From contig JADFJJ010000006.1 of the NCBI GenBank assembly GCA_022566215.1, positions 1 to 61,326 of the forward strand: a DNA stretch of 61,326 nt, given 5' to 3'. Origin of the DNA: Pseudomonadota bacterium (GTDB taxonomy: Bacteria; Pseudomonadota; Alphaproteobacteria; Sphingomonadales; SMXR01). Below are positions 44,187 to 50,390 of the stretch, piece by piece (the first letter of the stretch is position 1; each line of letters opens with the position of its first letter). Made by a program: the position numbers and the translations under genes. The notes beneath the pieces are model-generated. The model was not told the DNA's origin and ran no database searches. It saw only the letters and a program-made list of their open reading frames with translations.

Positions 44187-44216
44187 GAATTCGGGCGGCA
44201 ATCGGTCTCTTTAAAC

Positions 44217-44247
44217 GCAAAAAAGCGGCTTAGGTGCCGCTTTTTGC
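44217..44247. terminator. Bidirectional rho-independent terminator
   Basis: GCAAAAAAGCGGC-TTAGGT-GCCGCTTTTTGC between convergent yjbQ and microprotein 1. Confidence 0.8.
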
Positions 44248-44295: not shown

Positions 44296-44400
44296 TTAAA
44301 AAACCTGGGCGAACAGATTGATCAGGTGGTAGGAAAAAGTGGTCCAGTAAACGCCGGTGTAGGCCGTTACGATCATTAAGATGGGGTATGAGACGTTCAT
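44296..44400 (-). CDS. 34-aa hydrophobic microprotein, paralog 1 (MNVSYPILMIVTAYTGVYWTTFSYHLINLFAQVF)
   Basis: Translated by hand. ATG with SD AGAGGAG 7 nt upstream; terminator downstream; 20/34 identical to 46250-46354. Confidence 0.85.
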   Translation of the reverse strand: MNVSYPILMIVTAYTGVYWTTFSYHLINLFAQVF

Positions 44401-44454
44401 TGCTTTGCTCCTCTTGTGTTGATTTAAGAGTAGCAACGCTTGTTAAATATCCCC

Positions 44455-44481
44455 TTAAGGATCAGTTAATCAAAGCTTAAC
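44455..44481. promoter_or_regulatory. Tandem CtrA-type boxes upstream of microprotein 1
   Basis: TTAA-GGATCAG-TTAA-TCAAAGC-TTAAC, which reads TTAA-N7-TTAAC on both strands; a further TTAA at 44443. Confidence 0.75.
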
Positions 44482-44678
44482 GGGGGCAAAAAAATGAGGG
44501 CCGGTTTTGAGCCTTTAAAAAGTTCAATAAATGGCGGATTTGTGCGCCCTGTGTGGTCTTTCCGGGCAGTCCACAAATCAAGGATCACAGAAAAATAACC
44601 GGAGTTGAGTGATTAATTTCATTAAGATTTGCTAATGGGCGGAGCGTTGAAGTCCCGATTCTCTCCCTGCCTTTCGCC

Positions 44679-45206
44679 CTAAAAGGTTTTGAACCGGCCC
44701 TTGTGAAACAAAAGCGGCGGTTTATCTGTTTCCCGGTAGCGCACCACTTTGGCGACGATGATGATATGATCCCCCCCGGGATAGGTTTTTTCCACCACAC
44801 AGTTCAGGATGCCGCTGCAATTCTCCAAAAGCGGGACCCCTTCGCGGTCCGGGTGGGCCGCCACATCCTCAAAACGGTCCTGGCTGGGCCGGGCGAATTT
44901 CAGCGCCAGCTCCTCCTGGTCCTTACCCAGAATATTGAGGTTGAATTTCTCACCGGGCTTGAAAGAGTCCACCAGACCCGATTCCAGCGTCAGGCACCAC
45001 AAAATCAACGGCGGATCCAGGCTGAGCGAGGAAAAACTGTTGACCGTCAGGCCCGCCCAATGGCCCCCGGGCGCCAGCGAAGTGACGATTGTGACCCCGG
45101 TGGCGAATCCGCCCAGTGCATCCCTGAGTTTCCTGGCAACCTCCGGCAGCCCGGCGCTGTCAGAATCCTCCAGGTCGTACAGGGTGATATGCTCAGGGTT
45201 TTTCAA
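44679..45206 (-). CDS. Flavin reductase family protein
   Basis: LRDALGGFATGVTIVT, NSFSSLSLDPPL, GGDH and PLLFHKG motifs; TTGA overlap with the upstream gene. Confidence 0.9.
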   Translation of the reverse strand: MKNPEHITLYDLEDSDSAGLPEVARKLRDALGGFATGVTIVTSLAPGGHWAGLTVNSFSSLSLDPPLILWCLTLESGLVDSFKPGEKFNLNILGKDQEELALKFARPSQDRFEDVAAHPDREGVPLLENCSGILNCVVEKTYPGGDHIIIVAKVVRYRETDKPPLLFHKGRFKTF

Positions 45207-46090
45207 GGGGCCTCAGCCCAATCTTCCATGGTGTTGTAAAGGGTGGTGACAAACCTCTCGCCATTAATGAAAGACCAGCTCCAAACTTCATCAAATTCCG
45301 CGGCCGGATTGGCTGCCAGGACTTCCTCAAGGGTTTTGCCGGAGCTTTTCAGGGATCGAACGCGGCCTCCGATGGTTACCAGCATGTCCAGATATGTCTC
45401 AAGGCCCGCCTTGTCAGTAACCGGGCCATGGCCCGGAATAACAATTGTTTCCTCGTCAATCTTTGCCAGAACCCCTTCAATGGCGGGGATCAGTCCCTTA
45501 AAGCTGCCGCCGCTGTTGGTATCTATGAAGGGAAAGCAGGTGTTGAACATGATATCCCCTACATGCACCACATTGGCTCCTTTGAAATAAATGATGCTGT
45601 CACCGTCGGTGTGTGCGTTCTCGACATGGACGGCCCTGGCCTCAATGCCATTGATGTGAATAGAGACCTGGTCGTTAAAAGTGAGGACCGGGAGGGCGCC
45701 CGCGGAGACCTCTCGCTCAATCAGGCGGGTTCTGACATTGTCATGCGCCAGGATGACCGCCCCCTCCCGGCCAAGGTTTTCATTTCCGCCGGTGTGATCG
45801 CCATGGAGGTGGGTATTCAGGACAAACCGAATGGGGCCGTCATTAACCTCACCGATAAGGGCCAGAATTTCAGGGGTCAGGGGAGCCGTTTGATCATCGA
45901 TTAAAAACACCCCGTCCTCTCCGGCCGACACGCCGATATTGCCGCCCCCGCCAGATATGACGTAAAAATTATCTTTCAGGCGCTCCATCCTGACATCGCT
46001 AAAATCACAGACATGGGCGTTGGCCGGCTGGGTCATTAACACCGGACCACCCAGCATTAAGGCGAATAAACCTCTATTGAATATCTTCAT
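45203..46090 (-). CDS. Secreted MBL-fold metallo-hydrolase (cyclase-like)
   Basis: Signal peptide ending ANA; NTHLHGDHTGGN, AHTDGD and IPGHG motifs. Confidence 0.9.
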   Translation of the reverse strand: MKIFNRGLFALMLGGPVLMTQPANAHVCDFSDVRMERLKDNFYVISGGGGNIGVSAGEDGVFLIDDQTAPLTPEILALIGEVNDGPIRFVLNTHLHGDHTGGNENLGREGAVILAHDNVRTRLIEREVSAGALPVLTFNDQVSIHINGIEARAVHVENAHTDGDSIIYFKGANVVHVGDIMFNTCFPFIDTNSGGSFKGLIPAIEGVLAKIDEETIVIPGHGPVTDKAGLETYLDMLVTIGGRVRSLKSSGKTLEEVLAANPAAEFDEVWSWSFINGERFVTTLYNTMEDWAEAP

Positions 46091-46249
46091 CGGCGGCTCC
46101 TGTCTTTGATGGTGTGCGCCATGAAGATTGACCCACCCGGGTTATTTTTTCAAGACAACAAACACCAAATAAGGCTAGAAGCCTGTAGCAAGTTTAATCG
46201 AGGAGGAAATTTATGAAAGGAAACCAACGGGCTGAAGCCCTGGCGCGAG

Positions 46250-46354
46250 TTAGAATATCGCAGCCAGCATATTAACGAAGTGCAGCGTAAATGTCGTCCA
46301 ATAGAGGCCGGCATAAAGCGCAACGATCATCAATATTTTAAAACTTACGTTCAC
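46250..46354 (-). CDS. 34-aa hydrophobic microprotein, paralog 2 (MNVSFKILMIVALYAGLYWTTFTLHFVNMLAAIF)
   Basis: Translated by hand. GTG start with SD GGAGAG 7 nt upstream; same length as paralog 1 with a gapless alignment. Confidence 0.85.
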   Translation of the reverse strand: MNVSFKILMIVALYAGLYWTTFTLHFVNMLAAIF

Positions 46355-46403
46355 AGCAAAGCTCTCCGTTTTCTAATGCGCCCGTAAAATTAAACGTCAA
46401 AAC

Positions 46404-46419
46404 TTAAAAAAATATTAAC
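46404..46419. promoter_or_regulatory. CtrA-type box upstream of microprotein 2
   Basis: TTAA-AAAAATA-TTAAC, 50-65 nt upstream of the start, similar to the 55-69 nt position in paralog 1; the region is AT-rich. Confidence 0.65.
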
Positions 46420-46705
46420 TTCTTTTATGGGTTTGCATTTTTCTAATATCCTGAATACTTTAAAATAGTAGATAAATAGTTAACAAAACAAATAATTTTA
46501 AAAATTATTACTTTATGAATTAATATTTACATAGACGAAAAGGTGATTTTTTCTATAAAATACTTGGTTTTTCAGGCAAAAAGCCATTTTTTTTACTTGC
46601 TTAATAAATAAAGTTACAGAAAAATCATAATCTTCGGAGAAATAAATTTCAAATTTCTGCCATTATTAGGTAGATAAGTTACATAAATCAACGGTATCGA
46701 CTAAT

Positions 46706-47914
46706 ATGAAAACAATAGCGGTTATCTTCGGCGGAGAAAGTGTTGAGCACGATGTAAGCATCTTGACTGCCCTGCAATTCATGAATGCCATGGACCCGGA
46801 AAAATATTTATCCCTGCCGGTCTATGTCGCCCCGGACGGGGTCTGGTGGAGTGGTGAGAAGTTGCGGAAAAAGGACTTCTACCCGCTCACCCAGGCGGGA
46901 AAAAAGGACTTAACACCCCTGACCTTGCCGTTTGAAAGTTTCCGGCGCCAAAAACCTTACTTTTTGGCCAATCAAAGAAGCAAATTTAAAAAACAGAAAA
47001 AAATTCCCTTTGATTTGATAGTTCCGGCCATTCACGGCAGCCACGGCGAGGATGGCACCTTGCAGGGACTATTTGAATTCACGGGACTTCCTTACGCTGG
47101 ATCCGGGGTTCTGGCAGCGGCGGCGGCGATGGACAAGGCCTTTACAAAGACACACCTGAGCGGTTTAGGGATACCCGTTCTTCCCCATATTCTGGTCAAA
47201 AAGCCGGATGAAGGCACATTTATCAGCCCGGATGAGCTGGCCAAGGGGATCAAACAGGCTTTCGGTGCAAAACCGTATCCAGTGATTGTCAAACCCTGCC
47301 ATTTGGGCAGCAGCATCGGGGTGACGCCAGCTGAAAACATGGATGATGTCATAGCCGGCCTGCTGTTTTGCTTTCGCATCGATACCGCGGCAATACTCGA
47401 GCCGTTCGTCGACAATCTGGTGGAATATAATGTAGCGGTCTCCAGGGCTTTTGGGAGCCTGAGGACCTCAGTCATCGAACGCCCGTTGAAAGAAAGAGAA
47501 TTTCTGGCGTTCTGTGACAAATACCTGACCGGCGACAAGGACGGGCTGAAAACCGGGACGGCATCGGCTGAGGGCATGGCTTCCCTAAACCGGGTGATTA
47601 ACCCGGGTGAGCTGGGCAAAGCCAAAACGGAAAAGATCAAAACCTGGGCTTTGAGCGCCTTTAAAGAGTTGAATTTAGCCGGATCGGTGCGGATCGATTT
47701 TCTCGGCAATGAAAAAACCGGAGAATTATGGCTGAACGAAATCAATACCATTCCCGGCTCGTTTGCCTATTACCTTTGGCAGGAAAGTGAGCCTTCGGTC
47801 AGCTTCACCAACTTGACCACGGCCATTATCGAAGAGGGCCTTCGTCAAAGCGCCGCTAAATCCTTTGATACCGACCGCACTCTGGGCGGGGCAGCAATTT
47901 TCAAGAATGACTAG
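46706..47914 (+). CDS. ddl: D-alanine--D-alanine ligase family protein
   Basis: FGGESVEHDVS, HGSHGEDGTLQG, KPCHLGSSIG, RIDF and NEINTIPGS motifs. Confidence 0.9.
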   Translation: MKTIAVIFGGESVEHDVSILTALQFMNAMDPEKYLSLPVYVAPDGVWWSGEKLRKKDFYPLTQAGKKDLTPLTLPFESFRRQKPYFLANQRSKFKKQKKIPFDLIVPAIHGSHGEDGTLQGLFEFTGLPYAGSGVLAAAAAMDKAFTKTHLSGLGIPVLPHILVKKPDEGTFISPDELAKGIKQAFGAKPYPVIVKPCHLGSSIGVTPAENMDDVIAGLLFCFRIDTAAILEPFVDNLVEYNVAVSRAFGSLRTSVIERPLKEREFLAFCDKYLTGDKDGLKTGTASAEGMASLNRVINPGELGKAKTEKIKTWALSAFKELNLAGSVRIDFLGNEKTGELWLNEINTIPGSFAYYLWQESEPSVSFTNLTTAIIEEGLRQSAAKSFDTDRTLGGAAIFKND

Positions 47915-47946
47915 GGTCTGAACCCAATTGAGGTATAAGGCCCACC

Positions 47947-48729
47947 ATGGCAACAAATAAAAACACCGCGCTGTTTAAAAAAGAGCTGCCCTTCCCGGGA
48001 AAGGGAAAAGCGCCCGAAATTATCTGGTTGCATGGCTGGGGCCAGGATCACAGAAGTCTGCTGCGGTTGGCATCGCTTTATAAAAACCAGGCCAGAAACA
48101 CCCTTTACGATCTTCCCGGGTTTGGAAAATCGGCAATGCTGGAACCCGGGGCGGGGACCGCGGACTATGCCGATGCCATCATCAGGGACCTGCGGAAGGT
48201 TGGACCCGGCCACAGAATAGTCGCCGGACACTCCTTCGGGTGCCGGGTCGCCTTGAGAATAGCCGACCAGGCGCCGGAGTTGGTGGCGGGCCTGGTTTTG
48301 ATCTCGGCCGCCGGCCTGCGCCGTAAACGGGGACTTTTCTGGACCCTCAAGAGCCTGGGCTTAAAGCTACTCGGTAAAATAGCGCATTTATCCGACCGGG
48401 TTTTCAATACCGCCCTGAAGGCTAAATACAGTAAGAGGTTCGGCAGCCACGATTACAAGGCCGCTGGGCCTTTGCGTCCGACGCTGGTTGCAACCGTTAC
48501 CGAAGATCTGTCAGAAATATCCACCCGGCTAGGAACAAATGTGCTTCTTTTATACGGGGATGAGGACACCGAAACTCCGCCCGAGCTGGGGATTCAATAC
48601 CATAAACTTCTGGCCAACAGCTGCTTTAGGATTCTAAAGGGGTTTGGACACTTAAATATCTTGACCACGGGCGCTCACCAGTGTCAGCATAGTATTAATC
48701 AATTTATCAGGGATCTGGGGGGAAAATGA
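47947..48729 (+). CDS. Alpha/beta-fold hydrolase
   Basis: LHGWG, DLPGFG, GHSFG nucleophile elbow, YGDEDTETP and GH motifs. Confidence 0.9.
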   Translation: MATNKNTALFKKELPFPGKGKAPEIIWLHGWGQDHRSLLRLASLYKNQARNTLYDLPGFGKSAMLEPGAGTADYADAIIRDLRKVGPGHRIVAGHSFGCRVALRIADQAPELVAGLVLISAAGLRRKRGLFWTLKSLGLKLLGKIAHLSDRVFNTALKAKYSKRFGSHDYKAAGPLRPTLVATVTEDLSEISTRLGTNVLLLYGDEDTETPPELGIQYHKLLANSCFRILKGFGHLNILTTGAHQCQHSINQFIRDLGGK

Positions 48730-50390
48730 GTTCAGGGCTTTTCTTTTATGGCAGCGTCCTAGGATTCTTTCTTTTTGCTGCAATATTAAGCTTTGTCTAT
48801 TACCGCGGCACGGCCCTGTTGCATTTTCTCCAGCAGGAAGAATACGACAATGACCGCTTTTTGCGCTGGCTGTTCCGCCGCCGGGTGTTTGATAAAAAAG
48901 CCACTTTGCTGATTCTGATTTCCTTCATTTTATGGTATTTTCTCAAGGAACAGAACCCGCCGCTTTACAATTTTATCCTGCTCACTTTGTTCATTCCGGC
49001 CCTCATTATTGGCATCATGACAAGCCGGCCTACTAAAAAAGCAAAAAAACCGCTGGTCATGACCGCCCGCGCCCAGCGTATTTTATATACCTATTTGGTG
49101 TTGATCGGATTTTATTTCTCCGGCATTTTGCTAACCTTTGAAAAGGAAAATTTAACGGCATTGATGCTTTCGTTTGTGGTCTTTTTCCAATGGCCTCCAT
49201 TTTTCCTGGTGGCGGCAAATTTTATCCTTATCCCGGTCGAAGAAATCATTGCCGCGCGTTATGTGAAACAGGCCCGGAATAAAATGAAAGACCTGAACCC
49301 GGTGATTATTGCCGTTACCGGGTCTTATGGGAAAACCTCCATCAAGCATCTTCTTTCCCACATTCTCTCCAGCATGGCGCCCACCCTGGCAACGCCAGGC
49401 AGCGTCAACACGATCATGGGGGTTACCCGCATTATTCGCGAAAATCTGGAGAAAAAACACCGCTATTTTGTGGTTGAAATGGGCGCTTACGGTTCTGGTT
49501 CCATAAAAAAGCTCTGCCAGCTTGCGCCGCCGCAGCTTGGTATTATTTCCGGTGTCGGCCTGGCGCATTTCGAGCGCTTCAAATCCTTAAGGACAGTGTT
49601 CAAATCCAAGTTCGAGATGGCCAATGACCTGAACGCGAGAGACAAAAAAACCATTATTAATGGCTCGGAGATTCCGGATTATCTGTTAAAACCATACATG
49701 AAACAAAACCAGCATCTGGTGGTGTGCGGGTCCCCGGAGGAGCCAAATCCGGGAGCGGTAAATTTAGTAAAATGCCGGCAGACCACAGACGGCCTTGAGA
49801 TTGAGTTGAAGGTTTCCAGCAATGGAAGCTCCAAAATAATGGCCCTAAAAGTCCCCCTTTACGGCGAACACCAGGGGACAAACGTGATGCTGGCGGCAGC
49901 GGCCGCCTTGAACATAGGGGTTCCAATGGAAGTGATTAAGGCATCCCTCAAAACCATGCCGCAAATCCGCCATCGCCTGGAAGTAACCCGCACCAAAGCG
50001 GGCCCATTAATCATTGATGACGCCTACAATTCCAACCCAACCGGATTTGCCAGCGCACTTGAGACCCTGAAAGTGTTAAAGAATCCTGGCGGGCGGGCCA
50101 TCCTGATTACCCCCGGGATGGTGGAATTGGGCAAAAAACACGGCGCCCAGCACCATAGACTTGGCGAGGAAGCCGGAAAAATCGTGAACGTGGCGCTTGT
50201 TGTCGGCCCGGCCAGGATAAAAAGCTTTATCGAAGGTTTTCAAAAAACCGCCCCCAAGAGCAGTGTATTGAAGACATTTGAAACCCAAAAGGAGGCCGAG
50301 GATTGGGTCAATGAAAACGCCCGCAAGAATGATGTTGTCCTGTTTGAAAACAACCTTCCTGATATTTACGAGGCCGAGATCAGGTATTAA
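48726..50390 (+). CDS. murF: MurF-like Mur ligase with N-terminal multi-TM domain
   Basis: VTGSYGKTS, VEMGAY, HRLE, IDDAYNSNP and TPGMVELG motifs; about 5 N-terminal TM helices. Confidence 0.88.
   Translation: MSSGLFFYGSVLGFFLFAAILSFVYYRGTALLHFLQQEEYDNDRFLRWLFRRRVFDKKATLLILISFILWYFLKEQNPPLYNFILLTLFIPALIIGIMTSRPTKKAKKPLVMTARAQRILYTYLVLIGFYFSGILLTFEKENLTALMLSFVVFFQWPPFFLVAANFILIPVEEIIAARYVKQARNKMKDLNPVIIAVTGSYGKTSIKHLLSHILSSMAPTLATPGSVNTIMGVTRIIRENLEKKHRYFVVEMGAYGSGSIKKLCQLAPPQLGIISGVGLAHFERFKSLRTVFKSKFEMANDLNARDKKTIINGSEIPDYLLKPYMKQNQHLVVCGSPEEPNPGAVNLVKCRQTTDGLEIELKVSSNGSSKIMALKVPLYGEHQGTNVMLAAAAALNIGVPMEVIKASLKTMPQIRHRLEVTRTKAGPLIIDDAYNSNPTGFASALETLKVLKNPGGRAILITPGMVELGKKHGAQHHRLGEEAGKIVNVALVVGPARIKSFIEGFQKTAPKSSVLKTFETQKEAEDWVNENARKNDVVLFENNLPDIYEAEIRY

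Follow-up and report, generated by a model that had tools for sequence, protein, structure and literature searches.

What are two very short genes, alike in length and sequence, doing on the minus strand of an uncultured alphaproteobacterium, each behind a box of the type bound by the cell-cycle regulator CtrA? The window (the whole stretch of DNA that was analyzed) comprises 61,326 nucleotides (nt), positions 1 to 61,326 of contig JADFJJ010000006.1 in assembly GCA_022566215.1. An earlier note had described two short open reading frames (ORFs) in it, here called c1 and c2, as paralogous membrane microproteins. The genome of the window is labeled G000 and the other genomes of its genus G001, G002, and G003; C numbers denote contigs within the named genome and L numbers loci found in searches. 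Judged by how their sequences have diverged, c1, c2, and a third copy on contig C43 of G000 are genuine protein-coding genes, and we infer that they are translated. By our searches they form an orphan family of one uncultured marine-sediment alphaproteobacterial genus, with 2-3 copies per genome. The reading that we favor, with a probability of roughly 0.5, is that the products are single-pass membrane microproteins of the CtrA regulon that act as accessories or modulators of a larger membrane protein. The two genes and their translation signals are as follows:

44296..44400, minus strand: microprotein gene c1, 34 codons plus TAA, ATG start.
46250..46354, minus strand: microprotein gene c2, 34 codons plus TAA, GTG start.
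44408..44414, minus strand: Shine-Dalgarno (SD) sequence of c1, AGAGGAG, 7 nt before the ATG, read from the sequence.
46362..46367, minus strand: SD sequence of c2, GGAGAG, 7 nt before the GTG.

Both ORFs lie where the earlier note had placed them and have the translations that it gave, with the correction that c2 starts with GTG and not ATG. The two proteins align without gaps and share 19 of 33 non-start residues, 11 of which are specified by different synonymous codons, including a serine encoded by TCA in one copy and AGT in the other. The GGAG-type SD sequence 7 nt upstream is present at both genes, as had been described, and its GGA core at c2 is kept across a three-genome alignment. A start codon with an SD sequence accompanies every family copy examined. 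Since the upstream in-frame stops differ among copies, the conserved protein begins at MNVS.

The substitutions that separate family members argue that the frames are read as protein. In 36 pairwise comparisons among nine loci, the ratio of nonsynonymous to synonymous change (dN/dS) was 0.05-0.68 in 18/18 pairs with a computable dS, which indicates purifying selection in every such pair and bears out the selection on the peptide that the earlier note had read from the codon swaps; dS was saturated in the remaining 18 pairs. Between c1 and its G001 orthologue, 32/33 residues were identical, four codons differed only synonymously, and dN/dS was 0.05. For c2 and its G002 orthologue, the corresponding values were 26/33 residues, 13 codons, and 0.064. 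The metagenome loci L058 and L059 differ by five substitutions within the ORF, all synonymous, while their flanks are far more diverged, and both environmental strain variants that fall within the ORFs (44302 in c1 and 46262 in c2) are synonymous. Eight of nine intact copies have 34 codons (the exception, G003_C159b, has 30), and here too the flanks diverge. We therefore regard the family as very probably protein coding. An alternative is that the ORFs are chance frames in a duplicated non-coding element, such as a small RNA (sRNA) or a promoter repeat. Their extreme shortness would fit such an origin, but divergence that is biased toward synonymous changes over 10 loci and the metagenome loci, a frame that is kept while the flanks diverge, and the start codon with SD sequence in all copies examined do not. 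This alternative is disfavored, and we find it hardly credible.

The family is small and narrowly distributed. The C43 copy, whose protein is 97% identical to that of c1, lies in a duplicate block of ~330 nt with 95% DNA identity that comprises the promoter, the ORF, and the first ~50 nt downstream and abuts the contig end. Six-frame profile searches recovered 10 loci in 4/4 genomes of the genus (three in G000, two in G001, two in G002, and three in G003), and the frame is intact in nine. The tenth, G002_C20b (L010, 146-247 on the minus strand of G002:C20), has an in-frame TAA at the conserved Tyr18 codon, where the metagenome relative P0005 has Tyr; this TAA is either the mark of a pseudogene or a sequencing error. 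The searches recovered no family locus from 397 other genomes of the order, a sample that included five other genera of the same taxonomic family, and no genuine one from 400 genomes sampled across the class. The lone marginal match at class level (G559, E 0.007) falls within a 326-amino-acid (aa) membrane-protein gene, in another frame. Thus, the family does not extend across alphaproteobacteria but is confined to one uncultured genus.

Searches of wider collections gave the same picture. When one genome per GTDB species was scanned for the pattern, only sequences matching the G001-G003 loci were returned, and a scan of Joint Genome Institute (JGI) metagenomes added four further loci of the G002-type c2 (L058-L061). 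Another locus, L062, sits inside a larger ORF without the N-terminal half of the peptide and was set aside as a false positive. A hidden Markov model (HMM) search of 1.84 billion representative proteins of all lengths yielded six matches, five of them true members. Of these five cluster representatives, four have a called length of exactly 34 aa, and P0005 has one of 53 aa, with an N-terminal extension. The sixth match, P0006 (188 aa, E 8.5e-4), is repetitive and looks unrelated, and it was also rejected. As this search produced no credible longer relative, the peptide is not part of a bigger protein. With the 46-aa extended frame as query, a search for homologous proteins returned one cluster only, P0001. 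The sequencing runs that contain the stretch are labeled as marine sediment metagenomes and come from three studies.

The peptide matches no described family, as the earlier note had suspected. Pfam and NCBIfam gave no family at E values up to 10, and a tblastn search of plasmids gave no match. The best PHROGs match (phrog_8349, of unknown function, covering 8/19 members at E 0.021) was treated as noise, and the single match of a PDB profile search, a segment of NuoL at E 0.42, as chance. In the ESM Atlas, the best feature scores (0.78-0.79) belonged to unrelated hypothetical clusters and were below the level of chance matches. Literature searches on the CtrA regulon, small membrane proteins, and YWTTF, which covered main texts, yielded no description of the family.

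What kind of protein is it? With an alignment of 19 rows, AlphaFold2 predicted a single helix spanning residues 5-33 (mean predicted local distance difference test score 93.7), in agreement with the single membrane helix proposed earlier. Family members have grand average of hydropathy values of 0.92-1.42, a net charge of -1 to +1, and 5-8 aromatic residues among 34. The c1 peptide, of ~3.9 kDa, contains neither Lys nor Arg. In all members the N terminus reads MNVS, MNIS, or MxxS and is followed at once by the hydrophobic helix. We take the peptide to be a single-pass, very hydrophobic, aromatic-rich membrane microprotein whose insertion into the membrane is predicted from these features. Positions M1, S4, L8, W19, T21, and F22 are invariant and Y14, Y18, and T20 nearly so; the core motif Y-x-(G/A)-x-Y-W-T-T-F-(S/T) is present in most members. 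The conserved belt, Y18-W19-T20-T21-F22-S23, is contiguous and covers all faces of the helix, and a test for conservation on one face was not significant (moment 0.168 compared to a permuted mean of 0.126, with 25% of permutations reaching the observed value). Such a belt would fit a helix that is surrounded by other helices, either those of a partner or its own copies. Flp and type IVc prepilins carry a leader ending in Gly, followed by a conserved Glu-Tyr. No Gly-x4-Glu-Tyr occurs in the family alignment, consistent with the earlier note that the Flp motif is absent.

We examined whether the genome at large uses CtrA and its box. CtrA is encoded on G000:C8 by a 236-aa ORF that matches NF045991 at 383.9 bits (cut-off 350). 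TTAA-N7-TTAAC occurs 21 times in G000, at 15 distinct sites, six of which are the palindrome GTTAA-N7-TTAAC. Eighteen of the 21 matches fall wholly outside ORFs of at least 100 aa, a space that makes up 7.5% of the genome; other spacings (N3-N6 and N8-N13) gave just 1-7 matches outside ORFs. The sites precede ctrA itself, a ccrM-type methylase gene (N6_N4_Mtase plus RAMA), mraZ, a divergent DUF6456/HTH pair, and two hybrid histidine kinase genes, and 3/15 are upstream of members of the microprotein family. This pattern looks like a working CtrA regulon. Since CtrA is encoded and the box behaves genome-wide as a functional intergenic motif, including at the ctrA promoter, a CtrA-type promoter is a well-founded inference. 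Other predicted sites lie upstream of genes for GMP synthase, for an epimerase/M24 peptidase pair, and for several proteins that have no Pfam domain, and the predicted regulon is spread over contigs C8, C24, C32, C39, C79, and others of G000. No convincing small ORF was found behind the 12 CtrA-box sites that do not precede family members.

Within the window, TTAA-N7-TTAAC occurs three times on the two strands (expected 0.29; 0/100 shuffles reached three), and all three matches are upstream of c1 or c2: 44465-44480 (minus), 44466-44481 (plus), and 46404-46419 (plus). The promoter elements are as follows:

44443..44481, minus strand: CtrA-type box cluster of c1, identical in the C43 copy and the G001 orthologue.
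44465-44481, minus strand: palindromic GTTAA-N7-TTAAC of c1, read from the sequence.
44454-44469, minus strand: overlapping TTAA-N7-TTAAG of c1, read from the sequence.
44443-44446, minus strand: fourth TTAA of c1, 8 nt further along.
46404..46419, plus strand: CtrA-type box of c2, TTAAAAAAATATTAAC, which on the gene strand reads GTTAA-N7-TTAAG.
46389..46394, minus strand: TTTAAT of c2, a putative -10 element whose TAA core is invariant in the three-genome alignment.

The tandem boxes that the earlier note had described at c1 are thus a palindromic box, an overlapping TTAA-N7-TTAAG, and a fourth TTAA, which together give four TTAA half-sites spaced 11, 11, and 12 bp. The same note had placed a perfect TTAA-N7-TTAAC before each ORF; this holds in that the three matches in the window are all there, but at c2 the gene strand lacks the full TTAAC, which is read from the opposite strand only. 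In the c2 orthologues of G000, G002, and G003, TTAA-N3-TTTTTTAAG and the -10-like element are the sole strongly conserved non-coding islands near the gene, and the former is the most conserved such island between c2 and the divergent ddl gene. The c2 box and -10-like element are also kept in the metagenome loci L058-L061. As the box of the c2 orthologues lies 9-10 nt before the conserved TAA-containing -10-like element, it falls over the -35 position. Conservation of the box with the gene is complete in the c1 type, where it is identical in 3/3 copies, and the TTAA-N7-TTAAG is kept in the c2 type (G000, G002, and G003). Family-wide, a TTAA-N7-TTAA box accompanies only 6/10 loci. Binding of CtrA to these boxes is what their sequences predict. 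The two divergent members in tandem on G003:C159 (L011 and L012, 605-709 and 1398-1490, plus strand) have no CtrA box; upstream of the first is a TGTGA-N6-containing stretch that hints at a different regulation.

A model that accommodates much of this is that the CtrA-type TTAA-N7-TTAA box overlaps the -35 element of c1-type and c2-type promoters. Given that position, the peptides of both types would most likely be made when phosphorylated CtrA (CtrA~P) is active. The helix would then insert into the inner membrane and join a larger membrane protein as an accessory or modulating subunit, and the outcome would be a CtrA-timed adjustment of some envelope function. The modulator role is drawn from the general behavior of small membrane proteins and from the conserved polar/aromatic core, and the existence of a partner protein is likewise presumed by analogy.

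RNA libraries bear on this model, in the form of Logan contigs, which are unstranded and may include DNA. The gene c2 and its flanks appear in contigs of three RNA-library runs (two studies), and the 3′ two-thirds of c1, with its terminator, in contigs of two runs. These are compatible with transcription and not proof of it. No RNA-library contig covers 44806-45543, which is most of the flavin-reductase and metallo-beta-lactamase (MBL) genes downstream of c2, and absent cover or depth cannot rank genes. For the same reason we draw no inference from the contig depth of 23 at c2 versus 2.6-4.7 in the MBL and flavin-reductase pieces.

Several findings weigh against the modulator model. Four of the 10 loci have no box within 130 nt (G001_C106, G002_C20b, and G003_C159a/b), and in the c2 orthologues of two other genomes the terminal C of TTAAC is not conserved. 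Of the earlier claim of a cell-cycle-regulated family, then, the CtrA-type promoter stands on good ground for the copies that have it, while cell-cycle regulation itself is a step beyond the sequence. The divergent ddl operon is 287 nt from the c2 box and could just as well be its target. RNA-library contigs extend past this box on its upstream side, two runs reaching 46591 and a third reading beyond 46600, and a sigma-70-like promoter (10/12 matches) is predicted at 46652-46624 on the minus strand, so the c2 box may sit inside a longer transcript. The lack of conservation on one helix face argues against simple one-sided docking to a partner. The contexts of family members are heterogeneous among genomes. 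Lastly, a type I toxin-like element would account at least equally well for the multi-copy, patchy, and genus-restricted distribution, the one apparent pseudogene, and a hairpin at the c1 SD sequence. As to the contigs that end at 46591, they come from two studies and stop there without a loose end, while a DNA-like run continues and the third run reads on; this is a weak hint of an RNA end at 46591, which, with the sigma-70-like promoter just upstream, may mark a second, longer transcript across the c2 box.

Are the genes, then, toxins? Type I modules are described as pairing a small hydrophobic toxin with an antisense RNA (PMC6563280, PMC8309996). On this explanation, the peptides would perturb membranes, sequestration of the SD sequence and an antisense or trans-acting sRNA would control translation, and the CtrA box would gate transcription. 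Like the Ibs, Ldr, TisB, and Fst toxins, the family consists of short hydrophobic single-helix peptides in two to three copies per genome, is limited to one genus, and changes context between close relatives. The ~330-nt unit duplicated at 95% identity on C43 and the inactivation of G002_C20b by an in-frame TAA point the same way, as does the structure of the c1 leader:

44402..44439, minus strand: hairpin in the 5′ untranslated region (UTR) of c1 that pairs the SD sequence, -12.3 kcal/mol, z -3.4.

The same fold forms in the C43 leader (-15.4 kcal/mol, z -4.3, with a different inner-stem sequence) and in that of G001 (-12.2 kcal/mol, z -3.4), so that all three c1-type leaders have it, at z values of -3.4 to -4.3. 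However, it is absent in 5/5 other family UTRs folded. A simple consensus scan of the opposite strand, in and just downstream of each ORF, detected no sigma-70-like promoter such as an antisense RNA would use. The contiguous polar/aromatic motif YWTTF is conserved more strongly than is usual for the Ibs, Ldr, TisB, and Fst class, and dN/dS values go down to 0.05-0.06; together these suggest that the peptide has a specific interaction and does not simply damage membranes. Most of the peptides have little net charge and no charged tail, and neither plasmids nor PHROGs gave a match. No inverted repeats of the kind that flank a mobile element were found around c1. A toxin module is the chief rival of the modulator model but a doubtful explanation, and we retain the latter.

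A second possibility is that c2 is an upstream ORF or leader peptide that regulates the MBL-flavin-reductase operon, such that its translation and not its product matters. The elements involved are as follows:

44214..44245, minus strand: intrinsic terminator of c1, perfect 10-nt inverted repeat, loop of 6, U-run.
46172..46184, minus strand: predicted weak terminator-like hairpin between c2 and the MBL gene.
45203..46090, minus strand: secreted MBL-fold hydrolase (Lactamase_B), downstream of c2.
44679..45206, minus strand: flavin reductase (Flavin_Reduct, 130.7 bits).

The gene c2 shares a strand with the MBL gene, 160 nt downstream of it; the terminator-like hairpins in the spacer are all weak, and RNA-library contigs bridge the two genes, from c2 to the 5′ end of MBL. 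Because they cross the hairpin at 46172..46184, this is at most a partial stop. However, the c1, C43, G001, and G003 copies have no such downstream gene, and in G002 the gene that follows the c2 orthologue is on the other strand. The terminator of c1 that the earlier note had reported is borne out by its inverted repeat (stem 44220-44229/44236-44245), the U-run that follows, and a fold z value of -2.8, and reading the sequence of the G001 orthologue reveals a matching GC-rich stem and T-run downstream. Since it has this strong terminator of its own, c1 is a stand-alone unit. Moreover, selection acts on the amino-acid sequence throughout and not on a few regulatory codons. We thus consider a leader-peptide function very improbable, compared to a product that acts in the membrane.

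Could the product instead be a stoichiometric small subunit, like CydX or KdpF, of a membrane complex in respiration, transport, or envelope synthesis, or of a Mur-ligase-like protein? The belt at Y18-S23, which covers all faces as expected for a helix buried among helices, would suit this role, as would the genes that face c2:

46706..50390, plus strand: divergent operon encoding a Ddl-like ligase, an alpha/beta hydrolase, and a Mur-ligase-like protein (Pfam/NCBIfam matches).

This operon adjoins the c2 orthologue, divergently, in 3/3 genomes with visible context, as the earlier note had described for the window, and the second copy of G002 is divergent from a paralogous Mur-ligase gene. On the other side, no family member shares an operon with the genes of a complex, c1 is served by a promoter and terminator of its own, no small-subunit family of Pfam or NCBIfam matched, and no PDB chain scored below E = 0.42. 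The Mur-ligase-like gene occurs in 9/9 genomes of the taxonomic family, most without the microprotein, which is found only in the four genomes of one genus; the ligase is therefore independent of it. A complex prediction with residues 1-185 of the Mur-ligase-like protein and the microprotein gave no answer (score 0.00 against a mark of 0.32), which is evidence neither way. A fixed subunit is improbable, and a modulator of a larger membrane protein is still the reading that we prefer.

Pfam confirmed the identities that had been assigned to these neighbors: Lactamase_B and Flavin_Reduct for the MBL hydrolase and flavin reductase, and Ddl N and C domains, an alpha/beta hydrolase, and Mur ligase M and C domains for the operon. 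The best NCBIfam match of the MBL protein is SoxH-related at 87 bits, under its cut-off of 280 bits, and the 402-aa Ddl-like ATP-grasp ligase is below the NCBIfam Ddl cut-offs. The MurF-like protein has a hydrophobic N-terminal region of ~180 aa with, by eye, several transmembrane helices; to our knowledge, a membrane-anchored Mur-type ligase is unusual and uncharacterized. Its G001 orthologue (L047, G001:C108:840-2501) is 96% identical and has one in-frame TAA. The mraZ locus, on contig C39, is distinct from this operon.

The remaining contexts vary. The bracketing of the MBL and flavin-reductase genes by c1 and c2, as the earlier note had it, is present in this window but only in this genome, and differs in G001 and G002. 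The two G002 copies are separated by a Mur-ligase paralogue. In G001, the gene before c1 is YceI, and the c2-like copy is beside a TIR-domain gene. The latter, on G001:C106 (L025, 946-3123, minus strand), encodes a 726-aa protein with an N-terminal TIR domain (TIR_2/ThsB_TIR) and is divergent from the c2-like copy. The copies on G003:C159 are located between the 3′ end of a Crp-family gene and genes for a single-domain response regulator and a membrane protein. Downstream of c1, synteny of UPF0047 and fadB is kept between G000 and G001. In G007, which belongs to another genus, an MBL homologue lies on the opposite strand to ddl, beyond one intervening ORF, and the ORFs listed there include no family-like microORF. 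Thus, c2 seemingly arose in or landed in the ddl-MBL spacer within this genus.

How does the family compare with known systems? Among small proteins with a single hydrophobic helix that belong to regulons are the enterobacterial modulators MgrB, MgtS, AcrZ, and MgtR and the subunits CydX and KdpF. The c1/c2 family resembles them in size, in its single hydrophobic helix, and in predicted regulon membership; unlike them, it matches no Pfam or NCBIfam family, and its genes are stand-alone and multi-copy. Most CtrA-activated promoters of Caulobacter have one site at -35 and pilA has extra sites upstream (PMC11264516). The G000 promoters resemble those of Caulobacter crescentus in that the regulator gene is present and TTAA-N7-TTAA(C) lies over the inferred -35, and c1 resembles pilA in that a gene for a very small membrane protein is preceded by extra, phased sites. 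Unlike pilA, the c1/c2 peptide is not a pilin and has no prepilin motif, and 4/10 family loci lack the box.

SidA of Caulobacter is a 29-aa inner-membrane division inhibitor that binds FtsW and is under LexA/SOS control (PMC4211646). Compared by description only, the family is similar to SidA and DidA as an alphaproteobacterial single-helix membrane microprotein with predicted control by a global regulator. It is in the size class of SidA, and one family copy adjoins genes of the cell-wall-ligase type. In contrast to the LexA/SOS control of SidA, the family boxes are of the CtrA type. A bolder version of the modulator model would make the peptide a lineage-specific, CtrA-timed effector that is made solely while CtrA is active and turns the divisome or the unusual Ddl/Mur-ligase envelope machine on or off, a counterpart of the damage-induced SidA and DidA that was possibly born recently in the ddl-MBL spacer. 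This version is speculative and rather unlikely.

We conclude that this is an orphan family within a well-populated kind, bacterial single-helix microproteins on a global regulon, and not a new kind of system. If the modulator model is correct, an unannotated family of small membrane proteins would join the predicted CtrA regulon, and even an uncultured alphaproteobacterium with a 1.9-Mb genome would wire lineage-specific microproteins into its cell-cycle circuit. The family would be a candidate for studying how young small genes are recruited by global regulators, and it has value for annotation, as 34-aa genes are routinely missed. Its reach is limited to one uncultured genus, and it opens no long-standing question to direct test.

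A further feature lies between the flavin-reductase stop and the c1 promoter. A 20-nt inverted repeat with 80% complementarity (44497-44516/44682-44701) encloses 165 nt there. The repeat region (44497-44701) had no Rfam match at gathering thresholds. The repeat is followed on the minus strand by a T-run, and it may form a structured RNA or act as a terminator of unusual length.

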